A DNA stretch of 36,573 bases. Source: a virus. Its lineage: Duplodnaviria > Heunggongvirae > Uroviricota > Caudoviricetes. Both the position numbers and the translations under genes were made by a program. Positions 14,756 to 34,189 of the stretch are shown in pieces. The stretch lies in the IMG/VR virus record IMGVR_UViG_2728369393_000013; one strand, given 5' to 3'. The stretch's first letter is position 1. Each line of letters starts with the position of its first letter. The notes under the pieces were generated by a model. That model made no database searches. It was given only the letters and a program-made list of their open reading frames with translations, and was not told the DNA's origin.

Positions 14756-15181
14756 ATGGAATTACAGGACTGGCGAAAAGAACCTCGTAAAAACTATTCG
14801 AATGAATTCAAACTTCGTATGGTGGAACTGGCATCACAACCTGGAGCTTGTGTTGCACAGATTGCACGTGAAAATGGCGTCAATGATAATGTTATTTTCA
14901 AATGGCTCAGGCTCTGGCAGAACGAAGGGCGTGTTTCGCGGCGTCTTCCGGTAACGACCTCTTCTGACACTGGCGTTGAATTATTACCTGTAGAAATAAC
15001 GCCGGATGAGCAGAAAGAACCTGTGGCGGCCATTGCGCCGTCTTTATCCACTTCCACTCAGACCAGAGTCAGTGCCAGTTCCTGCAAGGTGGAATTCCGT
15101 CACGGTAACATGACGCTGGAAAATCCATCGCCAGAGCTGCTCACGGTGTTGATCCGTGAACTGACCGGGAGGGGAAGATGA
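14756..15181 (+). CDS. IS66-family accessory protein Orf1 (TnpA-like), 141 aa
   Basis: First ORF of IS66-type operon, overlaps next ORF by ATGA. Confidence 0.75.
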   Translation: MELQDWRKEPRKNYSNEFKLRMVELASQPGACVAQIARENGVNDNVIFKWLRLWQNEGRVSRRLPVTTSSDTGVELLPVEITPDEQKEPVAAIAPSLSTSTQTRVSASSCKVEFRHGNMTLENPSPELLTVLIRELTGRGR

Positions 15182-15528
15182 TCTCACTCCCATCAGGTAC
15201 CCGTATCTGGCTCGTTGCCGGCGTTACCGATATGCGTAAATCCTTCAACGGACTGGGAGAACAGGTACAACATGTGCTGAATGATAATCCCTTCTCCGGT
15301 CACCTGTTTATCTTCCGTGGCCGACGGGGTGACACCGTCAAAATTCTTTGGGCTGATGCTGATGGTCTGTGCCTGTTCACCAAACGCCTGGAGGAAGGCC
15401 AGTTTATCTGGCCTGCGGTACGTGACGGCAAGGTATCCATTACCCGCTCGCAACTGGCAATGCTCCTCGATAAGCTGGACTGGCGTCAGCCAAAAACATC
15501 CAGCCGTAACTCACTGACAATGTTGTAA
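15178..15528 (+). CDS. IS66-family Orf2 (TnpB-like), 116 aa
   Basis: Conserved IS66 Orf2 sequence (ISLPSGTRIWLVAGVTDMRKSFNGL...). Confidence 0.8.
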   Translation: MISLPSGTRIWLVAGVTDMRKSFNGLGEQVQHVLNDNPFSGHLFIFRGRRGDTVKILWADADGLCLFTKRLEEGQFIWPAVRDGKVSITRSQLAMLLDKLDWRQPKTSSRNSLTML

Positions 15529-15558
15529 AAAACTCCTGACCGCATTATAAAAACGGTC

Positions 15559-17172
15559 ATGAGTCAGAAATACCTCATTCGCATCGCAGAGCTGGAAAGA
15601 TTGCTCTCTGAGCAGGCTGAAGCCCTCCGTCAGAAAGACCAGCAACTGAGTCTGGTTGAAGAGACGGAAGCCTTCCTGCGCTCTGCACTGACACGTGCCG
15701 AAGAAAAGATCGAAGAAGATGAACGGGAAATAGAACATCTGCGGGCTCAGATAGAAAAACTGCGCCGGATGCTGTTCGGTACCCGTTCTGAAAAACTGCG
15801 TCGTGAAGTTGAACTGGCTGAGGCTCTGCTGAAACAACGTGAACAGGACAGCGATCGTTACAGTGGGCGGGAAGACGATCCTCAGGTTCCCCGCCAGTTG
15901 CGACAGTCGCGCCATCGTCGTCCGTTACCGGCACACCTTCCCCGAGAAATACACCGCCTGGAGCCAGAAGAAAGCTGTTGCCCGGAGTGTGGCGGTGAGC
16001 TGGATTATCTGGGGGAAGTCAGCGCTGAACAGCTGGAACTGGTGAGCAGTGCCCTGAAAGTGATCCGCACAGAACGGGTAAAAAAAGCCTGTACAAAATG
16101 TGACTGTATTGTTGAAGCACCGGCGCCGTCCCGCCCGATAGAGCGTGGTATCGCGGGCCCCGGATTACTTGCCCGCGTGTTAACGGGAAAATACTGCGAA
16201 CATCTGCCACTGTATCGTCAGAGTGAAATCTTTGCCCGCCAGGGTGTCGAACTGAGCCGGGCCTTACTCTCCAACTGGGTTGACGCGTGCTGCCAGTTAA
16301 TGACACCGGTGAATGATGCCCTGTACCGTTATGTAATGAACACCCGCAAGGTTCACACTGATGACACACCGGTAAAGGTACTGGCACCGGGTCAGAAAAA
16401 GGCGAAAACAGGGCGTATCTGGACGTATGTCCGGGATGATCGCAATGTGGGTTCGTCATCTCCTCCAGCGGTCTGGTTCGCGTACTCGCCGAACCGGCAG
16501 GGGAAACACCCGGAGCAACACCTCCGCCCCTTCCGGGGTATCCTGCAGGCGGATGCGTTCACAGGTTACGACAGGTTGTTCAGTGCAGAACGTGAAGGTG
16601 GTGCACTGACAGAAGTTGCGTGCTGGGCCCATGCCCGGCGAAAAATCCACGATGTATACATCAGCAGCAAAAGTGCGACGGCAGAAGAAGCCCTGAAGCG
16701 AATCAGTGAACTGTACGCCATCGAGGATGAAATACGGGGATTACCGGAGTCAGAGCGTCTTGCCGTCAGGCAGCAGCGAAGCAAAGTGTTACTGACGTCG
16801 CTGCATGAATGGATGGTGGAGAAGAATGGTACGCTGTCGAAAAAATCCAGACTGGGCGAAGCGTTCAGCTATGTACTGAATCAGTGGGATGCCCTCTGTT
16901 ATTACAGTGATGACGGTCTGGCGGAGGCGGATAATAATGCTGCGGAAAGAGCGCTTCGTGCAGTCTGTCTCGGAAAGAAAAAGTTTATGTTCTTTGGCAG
17001 CGATCACGGCGGCGAGCGTGGAGCACTGTTGTACGGGCTGATCGGCACCTGCCGTCTGAACGGTATCGATCCGGAAGCGTATCTGCGCCATATCCTGAGC
17101 GTACTGCCGGAATGGCCTTCCAACCGAGTTGATGAACTCCTGCCATGGAACGTAGTACTCACCAATAAATAA
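15559..17172 (+). CDS. IS66-family transposase Orf3 (TnpC), 537 aa
   Basis: N-terminal coiled coil, CxxC...CxxC zinc motif (CPECGG...CTKCDC), DDE-type core; stop 30 bp before right IR. Confidence 0.85.
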   Translation: MSQKYLIRIAELERLLSEQAEALRQKDQQLSLVEETEAFLRSALTRAEEKIEEDEREIEHLRAQIEKLRRMLFGTRSEKLRREVELAEALLKQREQDSDRYSGREDDPQVPRQLRQSRHRRPLPAHLPREIHRLEPEESCCPECGGELDYLGEVSAEQLELVSSALKVIRTERVKKACTKCDCIVEAPAPSRPIERGIAGPGLLARVLTGKYCEHLPLYRQSEIFARQGVELSRALLSNWVDACCQLMTPVNDALYRYVMNTRKVHTDDTPVKVLAPGQKKAKTGRIWTYVRDDRNVGSSSPPAVWFAYSPNRQGKHPEQHLRPFRGILQADAFTGYDRLFSAEREGGALTEVACWAHARRKIHDVYISSKSATAEEALKRISELYAIEDEIRGLPESERLAVRQQRSKVLLTSLHEWMVEKNGTLSKKSRLGEAFSYVLNQWDALCYYSDDGLAEADNNAAERALRAVCLGKKKFMFFGSDHGGERGALLYGLIGTCRLNGIDPEAYLRHILSVLPEWPSNRVDELLPWNVVLTNK

Positions 17173-24060: not shown

Positions 24061-24090
24061 AAAACCCGCTCATCAGCGGGTTTTCTACTT
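24061..24090 (+). terminator. Rho-independent terminator (CCCGC/GCGGG hairpin plus T-rich tail)
   Basis: AAAACCCGCTCATCAGCGGGTTTTCTACTTTTT seen directly. Confidence 0.55.
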
Positions 24091-24537
24091 TTTCTTAACC
24101 TCGGGTATACAAAGCCCATCGTTGAAAAAATTTTATCCATATTTTTTGAAAAATGCAAGCATCACGTTACCATCTTCATTGAAAAACCTTTATCGTGTTA
24201 CTTTTATCAATTGCACTTCAGTATAGAGTTATCCCAGACAGCACTTTAAAGACTTCTACATTACACACACCTTGTCTCCCCTTCTCGTCATATCTGCAAG
24301 ACCGATATGCATGACGCAGTACATACGCTGAACTGCTTTATCCATCTGCATATTCTAGTGCTAAAGCGACTTCAGTAGCAGAAGCAAAATTCTGCTACTG
24401 TGCCAAACAGGAGTAAACGTCATTTTATGTAATGTTGATTGAGTGGTCATAGTATCACCTCAATAACAACTCTCCGCCCTATCATTGAAAGCATATCTGC
24501 TATAATTAAAAAGCCACTTAACATCAGGACTTCAAAC

Positions 24538-24723
24538 ATGACTTCAAATCAATCTGAAAACGAAATAGTTAATACTGTCAAAAAATATGCATCATGTGCT
24601 GACGATGCTTTGCAGGGAGGCAAAGAAAACGTTAAAGATAAATTTAGAAATTATCCACTGACTAGCGTGGTGGTTGCTCTAAGCATAGGGTTAACGCTTG
24701 GTTTTATTATTGGCAGAAAATAA
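24538..24723 (+). CDS. Small tail-anchored membrane protein, DUF883 (ElaB/YqjD)-like C-terminus (61 aa)
   Basis: Hydrophilic N-terminus then NYPLTSVVVALSIGLTLGFIIGRK TM anchor; ATG at 24538; hairpin terminator downstream. Confidence 0.45.
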   Translation: MTSNQSENEIVNTVKKYASCADDALQGGKENVKDKFRNYPLTSVVVALSIGLTLGFIIGRK

Positions 24724-24775
24724 TCTTAAGCCTCCCATAAGTCGTACACAATCACATCTGCCAATTAATGTTCCA

Positions 24776-24808
24776 TTAGTAAAAAACCACCTCCTGTGGA
24801 GGTGGTTT
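24776..24808 (-). terminator. Rho-independent terminator, strong on minus strand (CCACCTCC/GGAGGTGG hairpin plus T6), weak on plus
   Basis: AAAAACCACCTCCTGTGGAGGTGGTTT seen directly. Confidence 0.6.
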
Positions 24809-25883: not shown

Positions 25884-26636
25884 TTATCTCGTCACTTTTC
25901 TTAATTGCACCTCAGCATATGCTTCTTCCTGCCAGCACTTTGTAACCAGTTTATCAATGACATCTGCATATCCTTTGTACCACTGATAATCCGTCAGGTC
26001 TGGTACCAGCTTCTGGACATGACACCGCGCCAGTGTCGTTGGTAAACGACTAAACCGGTTTCCATTGCAACGCCCACAAACCTTATAAACAGGCGTGCTA
26101 TGAAGCCGGGTTCTTTTTTCATCCAGGACAATACCTTTCCCCTTACACCCTCTGCACGCTGTGCTGACTTCTCCCTTACCATGGCAATGCTGACATAGTT
26201 CCTTCACCCACTCTTCCTTGATAACAGATTCCCCACTTCTGGAGTGTTTCACCACTTCGCGCAATACATTATGAAATCCAGTACCAGCACAATACTCACA
26301 GCGAGCCTTACTTGCCGCAGACCTGGAATAATCAGCAAAGGCAAAATTCACAAGGTAAGGGATGATCTGTAACCGGATTTCTTCACTCAATTTGTTCAAT
26401 GTCGGATTATCCATTGCCATCGCGTAATTGAGCAGACCTTCAATCGCAAACTGAGGATCCTGAACACCAACTTTTGCCAGGAATAAGGCAAAACCAAGCG
26501 GAGCTTTCGACTGCACCATCCCCTGCGCAGCCATCACATCTGTTATTGTTAAACCACCCGAGCCTGTCGCCGGTGCGTCATCACTCAATTTTGGAGATTT
26601 TGGGGAGTAATATTTTGGTAAAGCTTCAAGGTTCAT
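25884..26636 (-). CDS. quuQ: Late-gene antiterminator Q (250 aa, zinc-finger type)
   Basis: Cys-rich motifs (CEYCAGTG, CQHCHGKG, CRGCKGKG, CGRCNG); length and position upstream of lysis region. Confidence 0.8.
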   Translation of the reverse strand: MNLEALPKYYSPKSPKLSDDAPATGSGGLTITDVMAAQGMVQSKAPLGFALFLAKVGVQDPQFAIEGLLNYAMAMDNPTLNKLSEEIRLQIIPYLVNFAFADYSRSAASKARCEYCAGTGFHNVLREVVKHSRSGESVIKEEWVKELCQHCHGKGEVSTACRGCKGKGIVLDEKRTRLHSTPVYKVCGRCNGNRFSRLPTTLARCHVQKLVPDLTDYQWYKGYADVIDKLVTKCWQEEAYAEVQLRKVTR

Positions 26637-26649
26637 GCTCGTTCTCCAC

Positions 26650-27645
26650 TTACGCCAGTACGCCTATTGCCAGCGCACGATCGATAAAACGAAATATCAG
26701 CTCCAGCTGGGAGCCATAATTCTCTTCAAATGCCACGGTATTCGCATGCAGCTCGTCGTGATGCTTTCTGCACAAAGGCAACACAAAAAGGTCATGCGCT
26801 TTTGTACCCATTCCACCCTGACCGTGGCCTATCAGGTGGTGGGGATCATCAGCGGGCTTTCCACAACATGCACACGGCTGTGTCTTAACCCAGCGCGTGT
26901 ACTTTTCATTAACCCAGCGGCGACGTTTTGGGCGTAACATAAAAGACTCCGGCGACTCCGGATCCACTTTCAGCGCCAGCACCTTTTTCGCTTTATCCTG
27001 GATGATGCTGGTGGCAGGAACCGAAGGCACAAGGTCACTTTCCCGGGTGACAGACGGCACAACAGGCTTCGGTAATCTCAGTGCCTTACGGGCTGCACTT
27101 TCCGGTAAGGCATCCGCCAGGTCATTACGAACCAGCCACCAGCACAGTTCCGGCATTGTCACTACGTGACTGTCATCAAAACCGAGATCCCGACGCACGA
27201 CAGATAACACCCAGTGGGCACAGTTATCCGTTGCCATTGATTCCAGCCGTTCCGTGAACTGATCACGCAACTGGTTATCGCAGTGCCAACACAGACGGAT
27301 TGCGCCCGGCGCGTGTCGCATTGTGGTCATGTTCTCGCTGTGCCAGTCGGAATGAGGCCACTGACAGCCCTTTTCACGAAGTAACCAGCTTTCAAGACAT
27401 TCCACGCCACCAGCACGACGGATCACTGCCTCATTGCGGAACACGGCCCGAACGGCAGGATCATCCGCCAGCGGTTGTGATGCCGCCGGAACGGCACCAC
27501 TGGCGAAAGATGAATAACGTTCCGGCTCAGGCTCCAGCAGGACACGCCCCTGCATAAACAGGGGCATCAGCTCTGAACCTGGCCTGAACAATACGATCCC
27601 CATACGCGGGGCAATTTCAGGGGTCAGTAGTGCTCTCACGGTCAC
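26650..27645 (-). CDS. ydfU: DUF968-family protein (YdfU-like), C-terminal Cys/His-rich HNH-like region
   Basis: C-terminal CACCGKPADDPHHLIGHGQGGMGTKAHDLFVLPLCRKHHDELH; adjacent to Q as ydfU is in Qin. Confidence 0.6.
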   Translation of the reverse strand: MTVRALLTPEIAPRMGIVLFRPGSELMPLFMQGRVLLEPEPERYSSFASGAVPAASQPLADDPAVRAVFRNEAVIRRAGGVECLESWLLREKGCQWPHSDWHSENMTTMRHAPGAIRLCWHCDNQLRDQFTERLESMATDNCAHWVLSVVRRDLGFDDSHVVTMPELCWWLVRNDLADALPESAARKALRLPKPVVPSVTRESDLVPSVPATSIIQDKAKKVLALKVDPESPESFMLRPKRRRWVNEKYTRWVKTQPCACCGKPADDPHHLIGHGQGGMGTKAHDLFVLPLCRKHHDELHANTVAFEENYGSQLELIFRFIDRALAIGVLA

Positions 27646-27646
27646 C

Positions 27647-28522
27647 TCAATGAACGGTATCGAGCAGCTTTAACAGCTCAGGGAATCGGGATTCGAAGAA
27701 ATGCGGCTGCGTCTCGCGCGGATTTGCAGGACTGGTGATGTTCTTGCCGAACATGCAGCCTTTCGCCGTCAGCGACCAGAATTTTTTGATGTTGTTAATC
27801 GCGGTACGGCTGTATCGTTCGCGTTGTTCAACGATCCCCAGCTTCACCATCTGGTGATATGCCTGATTAGCCGTCAGGCGGATACCATACTGTTTCAGCA
27901 GTGCACTCAGCGACAGCGTGGGGCGACTTGAGCCATCAGGCGCGTCAGCAGGAGCATCAATGGCATAGCGCGGTGCCAGATTCGGTAAGCCAACAGCCTC
28001 CTGAAGCTTCTGACAGGCTCCAAGCACTGATGAGTTAGACAGGTTTAATTCCCGGCGCATAAAGTCCAGCAGGATCACGCCAGCCTGCATCTTGTCAGCA
28101 GCCTGCCCGGATAATTTTTCCGGTGTGCTGGTTACCATATCGAAAGTACGGATCACCTTCAGATGGAATGACGGGCTGATCCACATTGCATAGGCATACA
28201 CCAGTTCCTTGCAGACATACGTTCCTCCATTCCGCCCTTCTATTTTACTTACTGGTTTACTACCCAAATTTTGGGTAGTTTCATTGAATGAACCGACACC
28301 CAAATTTTGGGTATCGATCAATTCCTGAACCAGCTCAGTAATCTGTTGGCTGGAAAGAAACTTTCCCGGCTCCTTAGTTCTGGCATTTGCACCAGATGCA
28401 ACAGCAGCCCGATGCAGATCGTTCAGGCTGTAACGCCCATAAGCATCACGACGAACTTCAATACCATCAATGACCATCAGATTATTCATACTTCGTTTCT
28501 CCTCTTGATCAGGCGGCTGCAC
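27647..28522 (-). CDS. KilA-N domain protein, antirepressor-like (291 aa)
   Basis: N-terminal MVIDGIEVRRDAYGRYSLNDLHRAAV typical of KilA-N/APSES domain; internal TQNLG repeat. Confidence 0.55.
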   Translation of the reverse strand: MQPPDQEEKRSMNNLMVIDGIEVRRDAYGRYSLNDLHRAAVASGANARTKEPGKFLSSQQITELVQELIDTQNLGVGSFNETTQNLGSKPVSKIEGRNGGTYVCKELVYAYAMWISPSFHLKVIRTFDMVTSTPEKLSGQAADKMQAGVILLDFMRRELNLSNSSVLGACQKLQEAVGLPNLAPRYAIDAPADAPDGSSRPTLSLSALLKQYGIRLTANQAYHQMVKLGIVEQRERYSRTAINNIKKFWSLTAKGCMFGKNITSPANPRETQPHFFESRFPELLKLLDTVH

Positions 28523-28898
28523 CCGCCGTTTTCTCGTACTTACTGATAGTGATCTCGACCTTCCCTTCCGGGATAACCGGTCCCCACTCCACCAGCATTC
28601 TTTTCACCTGACTGTCGTCTTCCCACACACCCGCGTGGGTCAGGGCGTCAAACAGCGCCTTGTTATAGTTGTCCAGATCGCGGATCCGGTTATCCGGAGG
28701 AAACAACACGATCTCCACTGAAGCAGGTGCCGACGTTGGTTTCGGCAGACGACGTAACTGCTCAACTATTGCTGCACACGCCGCGCTCTGGAATTTGCGC
28801 CCCGCCGCGCTTATCAGGCTCTTACCTGCAAACGCCCCTTTGTTGGGGTGTCGCCAGTACGTGTTCACGCTGGGCGGAAAAGGCAGGATCAGCTTCAT
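28509..28898 (-). CDS. rusA: RusA-family Holliday junction resolvase (129 aa)
   Basis: Conserved DLDNYNKALFDALTHAGVWEDDSQV block and size. Confidence 0.8.
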   Translation of the reverse strand: MKLILPFPPSVNTYWRHPNKGAFAGKSLISAAGRKFQSAACAAIVEQLRRLPKPTSAPASVEIVLFPPDNRIRDLDNYNKALFDALTHAGVWEDDSQVKRMLVEWGPVIPEGKVEITISKYEKTAGAAA

Positions 28899-29581
28899 GC
28901 CACTATCTCCCTGACCAGCCGTTCTGCCTGCTGGCGAACCTGCGCCAGAAACGCCTCACCACATGCCTCAAGTTCATCGCGCCCGATGTAGCTGATTGCC
29001 GGTCCCTTCCAGGTCTTGTCAAAAACAGCAATAGCACCAGCGAAGAAAGCGCCTGTCGGCACCTGCTTCTCGTCTTTCGGGATAAACCAGGCAGGCACTT
29101 CAAAACCAATACGCCCGCGAATAAAAGCAATATGATCTGCATCTTCCGGCCACCACACTTCGCTGGTGGCAGCTTTGATCAGGAAAACATAGCGTCCGCC
29201 CTTATCACGCATGGCACTGGCATGCTTCATGATGTAACGCATGCCGGTGATGTATTGCCCCTCATGCTGACTGGCGCGGCTGTATGGGGGATTACCAAAG
29301 GCAGCACCTTTAAGCTCCGCAAGACGTTCTGACCAGTCATGCGCCAGCGCGTTGTCTTCCGCCGTGTAATACGCGGTACATTTGGCGTTATCACCGTCAG
29401 TAAACAGATCCAGGACAAACGGGCCAAACAGGGTGTTAATTCCCCAGAAAATGTTATCCGGCGTGCGCCACTGATCGCCCACTTCCTTCAGTTCATGGGC
29501 TGGTTTGTTCCGCAGCTCCACCAGCTCCTGGCAATATTTATTACTCATTAAGCCCCCACGTAATTCCCTGACAGATACCAC
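28895..29581 (-). CDS. Phage-type N6-adenine DNA methyltransferase (228 aa)
   Basis: NPPY catalytic motif (FGNPPYSR) and overall phage Dam-like architecture. Confidence 0.7.
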   Translation of the reverse strand: MVSVRELRGGLMSNKYCQELVELRNKPAHELKEVGDQWRTPDNIFWGINTLFGPFVLDLFTDGDNAKCTAYYTAEDNALAHDWSERLAELKGAAFGNPPYSRASQHEGQYITGMRYIMKHASAMRDKGGRYVFLIKAATSEVWWPEDADHIAFIRGRIGFEVPAWFIPKDEKQVPTGAFFAGAIAVFDKTWKGPAISYIGRDELEACGEAFLAQVRQQAERLVREIVA

Positions 29582-30042
29582 TCATCACCCGATACAGCGC
29601 GCTTGCTGCTTTTCCGTAAGCACCGCTCACGACGTGCCAGAAAATTGTTTCGTTCTGGCTGGGAGTGGCTTTCACGGAATGCCGCCATCCACACGGTTGC
29701 AGCACGACGGTATAAGCCCCTGGACTCCAGTTCTTCAGCCTGGCGGGTCAGGCACAAAATCACCCGGGGATCGTTAGTGCCGACATAGAAATTGCGCACA
29801 GGTCTGGTTTCACGAACTGGTTGTGGTTCCGGCTCCTGCGCTCTCTCAGTCAGGCGCGGGAAATGTCTGCGTGTATCTCCTTCACAACGGTGAGCCACAC
29901 GCCCACTCTGACGTAACTTGCTTGCAGACTGCAGAACGCGCTGCCGTGAGTAACCTGCAAAAGCATCCGCAATGTCTCCGGAAGTACACCCCGGATGGGC
30001 TTCAATGAATTTCTGAACTTCATTCAAAAGACTCATGATCAC
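29548..30042 (-). CDS. Putative PerC-family (Pch-like) transcriptional regulator with N-terminal extension (164 aa)
   Basis: AEELESRGLYRRAATVWMAAF resembles the PerC core motif as recalled; not verified by search. Confidence 0.4.
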   Translation of the reverse strand: MIMSLLNEVQKFIEAHPGCTSGDIADAFAGYSRQRVLQSASKLRQSGRVAHRCEGDTRRHFPRLTERAQEPEPQPVRETRPVRNFYVGTNDPRVILCLTRQAEELESRGLYRRAATVWMAAFRESHSQPERNNFLARRERCLRKSSKRAVSGDEWYLSGNYVGA

Positions 30043-30857
30043 CCCCTGAATCCTGCCGGGATCTGGCTGTAGTCCACGTTGTCGTAACTGGCTTTGAAGT
30101 ACGGGTCCTCGCGTCTGGCTGCAGATACCGCAGGAACTTCCCAGGATTCTTCGAAATGACGATCCGGACCAAAGAACGTGACAGCCTGTTTCACAAATTG
30201 TGTGCCGCTGTTACCCATCGCAGATACCCAGCCCGCGTAGCGTTTCACACCTTCCAGCATGGTTTCGGGTTTTACCCCCTCATTCAAACGGGCTTTCCAG
30301 GCTTTGAAGGCTGCAGATTTTGAATTGCCACCAGCACGTTTGGGATATGCCAGCCATGCCTGCTCAAACTCCGGAGAGTATTCCGGTCGGTTTGAACGAA
30401 CTCGCACAGACTCATCAGCAGATGCACCAACAGCTATTGGTTCTTTGACTGGTTCTTTGACTGGTTCAAAAGAGTGACTGGTTCTGGGTGAATCTCCTGC
30501 ACTACCCCCTGGTGCAACTCCTGCACTACCTGGTGAATTTGCTGCACCAGATAGTGAATTATTTGCACTACCCCCTAGTGAATCTCCTTCACCATCCAGA
30601 TGAAGGAGATAGATATTACTTGAGTTACCTTTTTCACCTTTCCGGGTGACTTTTTTTACCAGCCCGGACTCACAAAGGGCCGCAATATGATTCATCACAG
30701 AACGTTTGCTAATCTCGCACTGGTCAGCAATATGCTGGTAGCTGGGCCAGCACTCACCCTGATCGCTGGCATTATCAGCCAGCTTGATCAGAACCAGTTT
30801 TCGCAATGGATTACCCACTCGAATTTTCATCGCTTTAACCATCAGCTCCATACTCAT
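30039..30857 (-). CDS. Putative replication initiator (N-terminal HTH domain, Gly/Ser-rich linker encoded by iterons)
   Basis: N-terminal winged-helix-like region (LVLIKLADNASDQGECWPSYQHIADQC...); central protein repeats coincide with direct DNA repeats; position downstream of cro/cII-like genes. Confidence 0.5.
   Translation of the reverse strand: MSMELMVKAMKIRVGNPLRKLVLIKLADNASDQGECWPSYQHIADQCEISKRSVMNHIAALCESGLVKKVTRKGEKGNSSNIYLLHLDGEGDSLGGSANNSLSGAANSPGSAGVAPGGSAGDSPRTSHSFEPVKEPVKEPIAVGASADESVRVRSNRPEYSPEFEQAWLAYPKRAGGNSKSAAFKAWKARLNEGVKPETMLEGVKRYAGWVSAMGNSGTQFVKQAVTFFGPDRHFEESWEVPAVSAARREDPYFKASYDNVDYSQIPAGFRG
30437..30600. repeat. Iteron-like direct repeats inside the replication gene (candidate phage origin)
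   Basis: GGTTCTTTGACT tandem x2.5 at 30437-30467 and five imperfect ~21-bp units GTGAATCTCCTGCACTACC-like at 30485-30595, followed by AT-rich stretch 30600-30640. Confidence 0.55.
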
Positions 30858-31090
30858 GCTGCACCTCCGAGATGCTTCATGTTTTTTCCGGAGCGAAAGG
30901 CTATAAGCGGCATACTGACGCGGTAATTACGGCCCAGCGGTTCACAAACCACCTTCTGACATTCACGGTCAACCAGGCTAACACGTAGAACATGCCCTGC
31001 AGGCGTGGTGTACCACTGACCAACGGTAGGAATTGATGTTTTTTTACGCTGAAGCAAACGGCAAATATTGAGGATCAACGGATTAAGCAT
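30854..31090 (-). CDS. Hypothetical protein (78 aa), translationally coupled to neighbours
   Basis: ORF overlapping stop of upstream and start of downstream gene by 4-8 nt. Confidence 0.4.
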   Translation of the reverse strand: MLNPLILNICRLLQRKKTSIPTVGQWYTTPAGHVLRVSLVDRECQKVVCEPLGRNYRVSMPLIAFRSGKNMKHLGGAA

Positions 31091-31919
31091 GACGATGCCC
31101 TCCGCTGATATTCAGGAAACGGTGAATATGAAGATTAGCCTTATCCGCCAGACGAATACGTTCAGCCTGCAAGTTAAGAAGGGTTTCTACCAGAACCTGA
31201 TGCGCCTGCGGATCCGAAAGAGTTACCTTGCGCAGAGCACGTAGTGCAGTTGTTACATAGCTGAGTTTATGTAAGTCTTCATCATTCAGACGAGTGAGGG
31301 CTGGGACAGTAGCCATGATGGCAGCCTCCGTATGCAATGGATAACTTCCACCACCGGAAACGCCAATTTCGCTGGTGGTGAACTGAGCAGGGTTGGCGTA
31401 ACCGGCGCATACGGAAACCGGCGCACCTTTCGGTGCCCCCACCCAGCCCACCATAATTTGGGTATAGCTGAGTTGTAGCAACAAAAAAGACGCTAACGCG
31501 CCAATTGTCGCCGTATGCAATTCCAGGACGCCAATCCCGGCACCCGCTTTATAAGGTGCCTGAACAGTGTAACGTCCCGGAATGGCAGAATCAATGTGCT
31601 GGTGGTCCTTCACACTCAACAAAATCACGCCTGAATTTCCACAAAGGGCTAAAGCACTCATGCGGGTAGTCTTTGCGAAGATAGATAACGCGCTGTGTTT
31701 CTGGCTCCCAACGAATAACATGAACATAAAGTCCTCTTCCGTCACGAAACCAGCGGTTAAGTTCCTGCACAACTCGCCCCCCACAGTCAGGTAAAGTTCT
31801 CTGTGGTTACTTACAGCCAGGAGATTTGGTAATCTGCATTCATGCCGTAACAACAGGTGTTCAGCGACGCTGACCACCAGCTGTTGCGACAAACGGTTAT
31901 TTGCCGTTAAACTGTTCAT
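31083..31919 (-). CDS. Hypothetical protein (278 aa) in replication module
   Basis: Long ORF in operon orientation; no motif recognised by eye (no Walker A). Confidence 0.45.
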   Translation of the reverse strand: MNSLTANNRLSQQLVVSVAEHLLLRHECRLPNLLAVSNHRELYLTVGGELCRNLTAGFVTEEDFMFMLFVGSQKHSALSIFAKTTRMSALALCGNSGVILLSVKDHQHIDSAIPGRYTVQAPYKAGAGIGVLELHTATIGALASFLLLQLSYTQIMVGWVGAPKGAPVSVCAGYANPAQFTTSEIGVSGGGSYPLHTEAAIMATVPALTRLNDEDLHKLSYVTTALRALRKVTLSDPQAHQVLVETLLNLQAERIRLADKANLHIHRFLNISGGHRHA

Positions 31920-33676: not shown

Positions 33677-34189
33677 TTACTCAGATTTGAACTTTGGTTC
33701 TGGCAAAAGAGGAGGAGTTGAGTCCTCGAATCGTAGCCAGTGCTCCCAGATATCGTGGGATTGTAATTCCAGAAGACCAATTTGACGTGATGCAACTGCA
33801 GTGCCAGCTATAGTTCCTCCTGCATAATCAACCTGGACGGACTTTGACGCTTTCTCAATTAATTCTGTCCAAGCTTCACTTTCCGCGTTAAAAGAAGCAG
33901 TTAATTCCTGCAGACGCTGTGGATCATCCTTGTTGTCTTGTTTCAAACGATTCAGGGCGGCCACCGAATACTTATTCTTAACCCAACTAACCTGAGCTAA
34001 CTGAACTCTCTGACAAGCGTCCATATCAGTAGTTGTTTCCTGAGGCATATCAAAGCAGGAAATAAAAAAAGTCTCAACACCATCATTTAGACTACTGCTC
34101 GGCTGGTTCAAAGCATCAGAAGCATTGGATGCTATCGGTATTATCAGTGCTACCGACAGAATCAAACGTTTAACATAAATCGCTCCCAT
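33677..34189 (-). CDS. Secreted DUF1311 (LprI lysozyme-inhibitor-like) protein, 170 aa, moron between cI and pL
   Basis: N-terminal signal peptide (KRLILSVALIIPIASNA); C-terminal EAWTELIEKASKSVQVDYAGGTIAGTAVASRQIGLLELQSHDIWE matches DUF1311 pattern as recalled; SD GAGGGG before ATG. Confidence 0.5.
   Translation of the reverse strand: MGAIYVKRLILSVALIIPIASNASDALNQPSSSLNDGVETFFISCFDMPQETTTDMDACQRVQLAQVSWVKNKYSVAALNRLKQDNKDDPQRLQELTASFNAESEAWTELIEKASKSVQVDYAGGTIAGTAVASRQIGLLELQSHDIWEHWLRFEDSTPPLLPEPKFKSE

Follow-up and report, generated by a model that had tools for sequence, protein, structure and literature searches.

A class-specific palindrome at a fixed position within phage KilA-N genes: a candidate cognate DNA site

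The stretch of DNA analysed here (hereafter the window; 36,573 nucleotides of a Caudoviricetes virus, IMG/VR record IMGVR_UViG_2728369393_000013) is a lambdoid prophage. Its minus strand carries a KilA-N domain gene at positions 27647-28489, encoding 280 amino acids plus a stop codon. Translation starts at an ATG (28489-28487) with an AGAGGAG Shine-Dalgarno sequence upstream and stops at 27649-27647. The local genes all lie on the minus strand, in the order replication gene (HTH_36/DnaD_N), PerC-like, Dam methylase, RusA, KilA-N, DUF968/HNH-like and antiterminator Q. Residues 8-121 of the product matched the Pfam KilA-N family (PF04383) with an E-value of 6e-21 and 74.7 bits against a gathering cut-off of 23.8, which places the protein in this domain family; its C-terminal domain gave no Pfam match. 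The gene was assigned to PHROG 129 ('transcriptional regulator') and has a 100% identical counterpart in Escherichia phage PhiR63_1. It has homologues in mEp460 (gp48), SfV (orf44) and ST64B (sb46) and belongs to the mEp460/SfV/SfII/ST64B group, and its KilA-N domain is 44% identical to that of P1 KilA (tblastn). Relatives of the gene were present in 2293 of 5426 complete E. coli genomes.

An earlier note on this DNA had described two copies of a 15-bp near-palindrome inside the KilA-N gene, 36 bp apart and encoding TQNLG twice, and had suggested that such a palindromic direct repeat embeds a protein-binding site. The observation was confirmed. The sequence ACCCAAATTTTGGGT is present at 28262-28276 and at 28298-28312, both copies being exact, and on the coding strand each 15-mer reads ACC CAA AAT TTG GGT, giving TQNLG at residues 72-76 and 60-64, respectively. 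The direct repeat common to both sites is 16 nt long, ACCCAAATTTTGGGTA, with a start-to-start spacing of 36; we calculate that about 1e-3 exact repeats of 16 nt, with copies no more than 100 bp apart, would be expected in 36.6 kb. Both copies continue outward into 21-bp palindromes of the form 10+1+10. The 3'-proximal one in gene orientation (28259-28279), ACTACCCAAA-T-TTTGGGTAGT, is perfect and encodes T-TQNLG-S (residues 71-77), and the 5'-proximal one (28295-28315), GACACCCAAA-T-TTTGGGTATC, has one arm mismatch and encodes D-TQNLG-V (residues 59-65). The window contains six perfect palindromes with arms of at least 9 and loops of at most 8 nucleotides, versus 0.9 expected from shuffles, and 28259-28279 is among them. 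The further copies that the note had proposed to look for did not turn up: the window holds no other ACCCAAATTTTGGGT, its sole near match (31449-31463) having three mismatches, and in the window, mEp460, SfII and ST64B genomes no second site was found outside the KilA-N gene.

The 3' palindrome shares its position with single-copy alleles, directly before the residues xPVxxI/V..G..GTYVCK, and its core, ACCCAAAATTTGGGT, was the same in 33 of 33 loci of the window allele. The 5' palindrome is the extra copy. Among sister alleles, a 36-bp (12-codon) unit, TQNLGVGSFNET, which occupies 28277-28312 on the minus strand of the window, was found zero, one or two times ahead of the resident palindrome, resulting in one, two or three palindromes and in the protein variants ...IDTQNLGSKPV..., ...TQNLGVGSFNETTQNLGSKPV... 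and ...TQNLGVGSFNETTQNLGVGSFNETTQNLGSKPV..., respectively. The window's two-copy allele falls in a 1048-sequence cluster. Its two units show no sequence relationship beyond the 16-nt core, and the helix upstream of the 5' copy is that of another TQNLG sub-allele. The window pair probably arose when out-of-register recombination or slippage between 16-bp cores duplicated the 36-bp unit. The direct repeat that had first drawn attention is thus a secondary duplication rather than the functional unit, as alleles with one, two and three copies occur; the single palindrome, not its doubling, is what matters. ST64B carries two palindromes of its own (CGAGGGCGGAATTCCACCCTCG and GATACCCAAAATTTGGGTATC), 61 bp apart. 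Duplications at the site recur in the window, ST64B, L071 and other alleles, and some alleles repeat 'GIP'-type motifs.

The palindrome was then followed through 84 distinct KilA-N alleles from 375 loci in many Proteobacteria, with hosts including Enterobacterales, Proteus, Morganella, Gilliamella, Xenorhabdus, Janthinobacterium, Xanthomonas and Tepidiphilus. We defined a zone of 55 nt (7% of the gene) that runs from 95 to 40 nt ahead of where the GTYVCK codons end. In 64 of the 84 alleles this zone held the best perfect stem found anywhere in the gene. Stems of at least 8 bp were found within the zone in 59 alleles, versus 11 alleles for the other 93% of the gene. When tested against a null in which synonymous codons were shuffled with the protein preserved, 48 of the 84 alleles gave p<=0.05; this null is conservative because the peptide itself is adapted to the palindrome. 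The inverted repeats have arms of 8-14 bp and centres of 0-8 nt, and some 38 different arm sequences occur among them. The centre lies between codon positions 1 and 2 in 18 of 27 distinct palindromes, so that third positions pair with third positions.

Alleles of unrelated peptide sequence carry unrelated palindromes at this shared position. The SfII class (peptide ELQICNS) has CGAGTTGCA-gatt-TGCAACTCG, the SAPxITGA class CGCTCCTG-N6-CAGGAGCG, the KAGIPAL class TGCCAAAGCAGGAATTCCTGCTTTGGCA, the NSAPAQS class AAACTCTGCGCCGGCGCAGAGTTT and the TPDLAFA class AACGCCA-gatt-TGGCGTT, and there are many further allele classes in which an unrelated peptide is likewise palindrome-encoded. About a quarter of the alleles are without a good palindrome, among them the frequent GGIPP allele of Stx2c type, whose GGGTGGAATTCCGCCT contains two G:T mismatches. 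As a more distant sample, twelve phage genes were examined singly. In P1 kilA the corresponding codons, 76-84, contain a stem of 11 bp without mismatch, GAAACTATGCA-gaat-TGCATAGTTTC, and a 34-nt BLAST query found no second place in P1-type records. Stems of 7-11 bp were seen in the Myxococcus phages Mx4 and Mx9, ST104 orf45, Emek ant, Flyfo Tbat2_3 and Ralstonia phage Heva, and stems of 6-7 bp in APSE-2, Vibrio 1.054.O and Aeromonas BUCT695; among the twelve, Vibrio phages 1.013.O and VaK had no palindrome. Cumulatively, a family-wide, position-fixed and class-specific palindrome in KilA-N genes is a finding wider than the window.

To score conservation at synonymous positions, as the earlier note had proposed, we used five classes with 4-15 diverged members each and counted columns of codons whose degenerate amino acid is invariant. 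Synonymous variation was present in 37 of 40 flanking columns and in both of the 2 columns in the palindrome centre, and in none of the 17 columns in the arms (Fisher p = 8e-12). Among TQxxG alleles the codons ACC, AAT (GAT in TQDLG) and GGT are always used, with Erwinia, Serratia, TQNPG, TQNMG and TQDLG sequences included, and the neighbouring codons are free. Codon pairs flanking TQNLG are complementary and lengthen the palindrome: GAT..ATC (D..I), ACT..AGT (T..S) and AAC..GTT (N..V). In the SAPxITGA class, GCT CCT G...ACA GGA GCG is kept from E. coli relatives to Proteus; around these arms GAA/GAG, TTA/CTT/CTA, CCG/CCC/CCA and GTT/GTC/GTG vary, as do the six central bases. Edwardsiella has CACTCCTG/CAGGAGTG where its relatives have CGCTCCTG/CAGGAGCG, at the cost of changing A to T and A to V, and a compensated change from ACA..CCT to ACG..CCC separates two sub-classes. 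Because the arms are synonymously invariant, the changes compensatory and unrelated palindromes share one gene position, the palindrome is not a by-product of the peptide. These results leave hardly any doubt that a real element is under selection at the nucleotide level. A structure that single-step changes can hardly alter would show invariant arms too, though to a smaller extent.

The earlier note had further held that homologous genes keeping the protein repeat and lacking the palindromes would speak against an embedded site. Homologues of this kind seemed to exist, with CAG for CAA in mEp460-type sequences and CTG for TTG in the 5' palindrome of the mEp460_4F5-type sister allele, the latter at +2 from the centre. 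We initially took them as synonymous changes that break the palindrome and then dropped this reading, because the changes lie ±2 from the centre, in a spacer that is variable in every class. No sequence that retains TQNLG has lost the arms ACCCA/TGGGT, and the invariant core over all TQxxG variants is ACCC/GGGT. The refutation test, applied as it stood, would have misled. As to the embedded site itself, the part of the claim that stands is a nucleic-acid element within coding sequence, borne out by invariant arms, compensatory changes and unrelated palindromes at a shared position; the further part, that a protein binds it, fits the selection on DNA and is argued below from the pattern of conservation.

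The palindrome lies within a hypervariable cassette of the KilA-N domain (residues 30-89; 28223-28402, minus strand) that was delimited by alignment and is predicted to encode two helices, a palindrome-encoded loop and a beta-hairpin. In allele alignments the cassette is swapped as a block: flanks of 95-100% identity enclose a segment that cannot be aligned. Thus the window and SfII alleles have flanks of 100% and 98% identity and a pre-palindrome helix of 26% identity, and their palindromes differ. Several palindrome classes coexist in E. coli phages in this way, within genes that are 95-100% identical outside about 180 bp. By contrast, alleles from distant taxa that share a palindrome have 60-91% identity in the pre-palindrome helix versus 37-65% in the flanks. 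This correlation could be plain physical linkage. In ST64B, the TQNLG palindrome is paired with a different type of upstream helix. A first AF2 model was too poor for use. A model of a single-copy allele (pLDDT 77, moderate) placed helices at residues 41-46 and 48-60, a loop at about 60-67 (TQNLGVD) and strands at 68-71 and 78-81, a predicted layout that resembles a helix-turn-helix followed by a wing. A Foldseek search of the PDB with the second AF2 model returned nothing significant, Mbp1 and PCG2 appearing only at E above 1, and a PDB sequence search gave no match; the modelled link between the cassette and DNA-contacting surfaces is weak.

From these patterns we infer that the element would act as double-stranded DNA, read by a dimer. 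Within classes it has the make-up of an operator, with symmetric half-sites conserved in sequence and a variable spacer, and a protein site in double-stranded DNA fits because the conservation is sequence-specific and lacks a G·U signature. The reading we prefer, and hold with middling confidence, is that the KilA-N protein would itself be the reader of this double-stranded DNA, with the palindrome as its cognate site. As gene content, all carrier loci have just the KilA-N domain in common; C-terminal domains and neighbours differ. A dimer of the protein would bind, as double-stranded DNA, the palindrome in its own gene. This palindrome lies in the codons of a predicted loop, with the cassette's second helix on one side and the beta-hairpin on the other, and combines class-specific arms of 8-12 bp with a short, tolerant centre. 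The variable protein segment and its site would then constitute one inseparable specificity cassette, both being moved as a block by recombination. The bound site may serve self-recognition or autoregulation, for example by holding the protein on its own genome (titration or tethering) or through a block to transcription across the gene. No promoter was found at the palindromes. A unique site within an open reading frame is an unusual location for an operator, and we counted this against self-binding.

We asked whether the inverted repeat could instead function as an RNA hairpin in the KilA-N mRNA, acting on translation, on decay (by RNase III or RNase E) or on transcriptional pausing, with only the pairing under selection. 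The sense RNA of the window does fold into two strong hairpins (-44.9 kcal/mol, z = -6.6; antisense -32.6), the centres of 4-6 nt are loop-sized, and pairing is kept while classes differ in sequence, with compensatory changes. The Stx2c-type allele, moreover, deviates solely by changes that are G·U-compatible on the sense strand. However, when sense and antisense folding were compared over 64 alleles, the sense strand was not favoured (mean difference 0.16 kcal/mol, Wilcoxon p = 0.31), and control windows taken in these genes likewise gave no difference between the strands. Transitions of the G·U type (ACA to ACG, GGA to GGG) were absent from the arms among 15 diverged sequences, and they are missing within classes although flanking synonymous sites are saturated. 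Many palindromes run continuously through their centre and would be loopless. A scan for intrinsic terminators over 28259-28315 on both strands found nothing and no U-tract, and Rfam 15 covariance models gave no match over 27400-28900 up to E = 10. An RNA hairpin is therefore unlikely on this evidence, if still deserving of some weight. The boxB-type hairpin has a 5-bp stem and a pentaloop; a boxB-like N-utilisation hairpin was rejected, since the site is in an open reading frame far from the pL/pR leaders, the loop sequence is unconserved and there is no strand bias.

A hairpin or cruciform formed by the DNA itself would be read by a structure-specific factor. Its role could be that of a substrate for a junction resolvase (RusA, encoded next door, is one candidate), of a signal for a primosome or for single-strand initiation, or of a hotspot for the recombination that exchanges cassettes. 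The arms are perfectly symmetric in Watson-Crick terms on both strands, rusA is directly upstream in the mEp460/SfV/SfII/ST64B phage group, and the site is within a mosaic cassette in which duplications recur (in the window, ST64B, L071 and others). By contrast, the sequence of the arms is itself conserved within classes, beyond what pairing calls for. The neighbouring genes are wholly different in P1, the Myxococcus phages and P22-like phages, and the palindrome is located inside the cassette, away from the borders. Arms of 8-14 bp are also short for cruciform extrusion. We regard a DNA hairpin as quite improbable.

Class-specific conservation of nucleotides shows only that something reads the sequence, and the reader might be another sequence-specific protein, of host or phage, rather than the KilA-N protein. 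Against such a binder, only the KilA-N domain is common to all carrier loci, and one host factor of fixed specificity cannot read all of the several classes that coexist in E. coli phages; we consider it very unlikely. Most of the probability not assigned to self-binding is shared by the RNA-hairpin, DNA-hairpin and other-binder readings. Codon coincidence, our initial reading, in which the usual codons of a conserved TQNLG repeat happen to be self-complementary, can be dismissed as next to impossible: within the subfamily the motif never varies in its T, Q and G, and the CAG and CTG alleles do seem to break the 15-mer, but ACC, AAT and GGT stay fixed across the variants, the flanks covary, unrelated peptides are palindrome-encoded at the same place, and arm and flanking columns differ as described above.

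The preferred reading, of a KilA-N protein that binds a palindrome in its own gene, has its closest precedent in the BstA-aba system, a likeness in logic rather than membership. The prophage protein BstA, which has a KilA-N-like N-domain and mediates abortive infection, is neutralised by a homologue-specific cognate element that acts as DNA (Owen et al. 2021, Cell Host Microbe; PMC8585504). The 63 bp of this element, aba, consist of 29 bp upstream and the first 34 bp of bstA, with terminal direct CCCGCC repeats (PMC8585504), and in literature quoted there KilA-N counts as a DNA-binding domain with fungal APSES factors among its relatives. Both cases would thus join a KilA-N or KilA-N-like protein to a short cognate DNA element at its own gene that differs between homologues. 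They differ in that aba spans the start codon and has direct repeats, whereas the KilA-N element is an inverted repeat within codons 59-77. The window protein does not belong to the BstA family: a search of PADLOC-DB gave only a weak PDC-S22 match, and BLASTP against BstA-BTP1 an E-value of 0.14. Near the equivalent region, BstA-BTP1 carries a weak overlapping palindrome with 9-nt arms, CCTTGATCA/TGATCAGGG, which are 89% complementary.

Tentatively, bacterial and phage KilA-N domains may be self-referential in general, in that a hypervariable segment of about 60 codons, which would specify the helices and hairpin that read DNA, would also contain in its loop codons the very palindrome that the protein recognises; we think this possible, though on balance rather doubtful. 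Were it true, each KilA-N gene would bear a private 'address label', the self/non-self logic of BstA-aba would extend across the family, including P1 KilA and Ant-type antirepressors, and dozens of natural protein-site pairs would be at hand for reading the recognition code. Few domains are as common as KilA-N in temperate phages and large DNA viruses, and hardly any mechanism has been assigned to it. The element yields a testable prediction of the binding target, allele by allele, would explain the hypervariable, mosaic middle of the domain, and ties ordinary KilA-N proteins to the self-versus-non-self case already studied in BstA-aba. Irrespective of the binder, synonymous sites in KilA-N genes are not neutral, which is relevant to recoding, phage engineering and dN/dS analyses. 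Our literature search found no paper combining KilA-N with a palindrome, and the P1 record, very detailed around kilA (promoters, an operator, Dam sites, an antisense promoter), has no entry at the palindrome; the KilA-N palindrome is a previously unannotated element.

KilAC is described as the toxic, division-inhibiting part of such proteins, and KilA-N as one of several N-terminal DNA-binding domains fused to it (preprint). HK022 Roi reads, from its sequence, as a Rha-type N-terminus joined to KilAC and not as KilA-N, and was dropped as a direct homologue. Alternative specificities are also swapped as cassettes between near-identical genomes in the lambdoid immunity modules (repressor/operators and N/boxB). 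In the KilA-N gene, unlike these modules, determinant and site would overlap within about 180 bp of one open reading frame, and the site is intragenic, single or duplicated, and has no nearby promoter. Sites inside the gene of their own binder include the lambda ori iterons in gene O, parS within spo0J and the HK022 Roi site within roi. As proposed for KilA-N, these are cis sites in a constraint-tolerant coding segment of the binder, and protein and site are therefore inherited together. An origin of the lambda O/ori type calls for three or more direct repeats and an adjacent AT-rich region inside a replication initiator gene. The KilA-N gene has one to three palindromes, without multiple iterons or an AT-rich unwinding region, and its product does not initiate replication and is not a ParB either; the element does not qualify as an origin iteron. 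Iteron-like tandem repeats are present elsewhere in the window, at 30438-30572, within the HTH_36/DnaD_N replication gene.

The exact 17-mer TACCCAAAATTTGGGTA occurs beyond KilA-N genes, which account for 45 of the 80 contigs that carry it. It also turns up in contigs of uncultured phages that form a single, unrelated family (L395, L398, L400 and about 25 further IMG/VR loci), where it is placed after an ORF resembling a winged-helix replication initiator; in some contigs of this family, tandem repeats encoding TTQNLR precede the 17-mer. Outside the KilA-N gene, the sole occurrence in the window is an isolated half-site, TACCCAAA, on the minus strand at 31449-31464, inside an Ash-family ORF (31083-31919). 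This half-site is compatible with a chance origin because about 1.1 occurrences are expected.

Two different palindromes can be found together in a single KilA-N gene. In sb46 of phage ST64B (L378), the palindromes at 33787-33808 and 33848-33868 lie 61 bp apart; one is of the GGIPP type with one mismatch, and the other is a perfect TQNLG-type palindrome. This allele appears to be chimeric, combining two of the hypervariable cassettes of the KilA-N domain coding sequence. The HK022 locus (L392) contains a 16-bp near-palindrome, AAACTTTGCAAAGGTT, at 2111-2126 in the C-terminal half of the roi gene. Judged by eye from its sequence, HK022 Roi is read as a protein of Rha-N and KilAC domains rather than a KilA-N protein. 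Roi has been reported to bind a site inside roi.

Directly downstream of the KilA-N gene of the window is a DUF968 gene (26650-27645), the product of which has a marginal HNH-nuclease match (26.7 bits versus a cut-off of 26.6). The KilA-N and DUF968 gene pair is kept in mEp460, SfII and ST64B, and is absent in P1 and the Myxococcus phages. In Vibrio phage VaK (L385), the KilA-N reading frame (601-1493) is interrupted, stopping after about 84 codons, and is annotated as two CDSs. This copy, which may be decaying, has no palindrome.

Other repeated and mobile sequences were also located in the window. Three overlapping tandem-repeat arrays with periods of 12, 24 and 21 span 30438-30572, inside the minus-strand HTH_36/DnaD_N replication gene (30039-30857); these arrays probably represent iterons of an origin that lies within the gene of its initiator. 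Three perfect palindromes with arms of 10-11 bp, at 24061, 24373 and 24784 (span 24061-24806), lie downstream of the Q gene (25884-26636) and may act as terminators in the leader of the late operon. Finally, an IS66-family element composed of three plus-strand ORFs (HTH_Tnp_1, TnpB_IS66 and DDE_Tnp_IS66) is inserted at 14756-17172, within a block of ORFs of mostly minus-strand direction.
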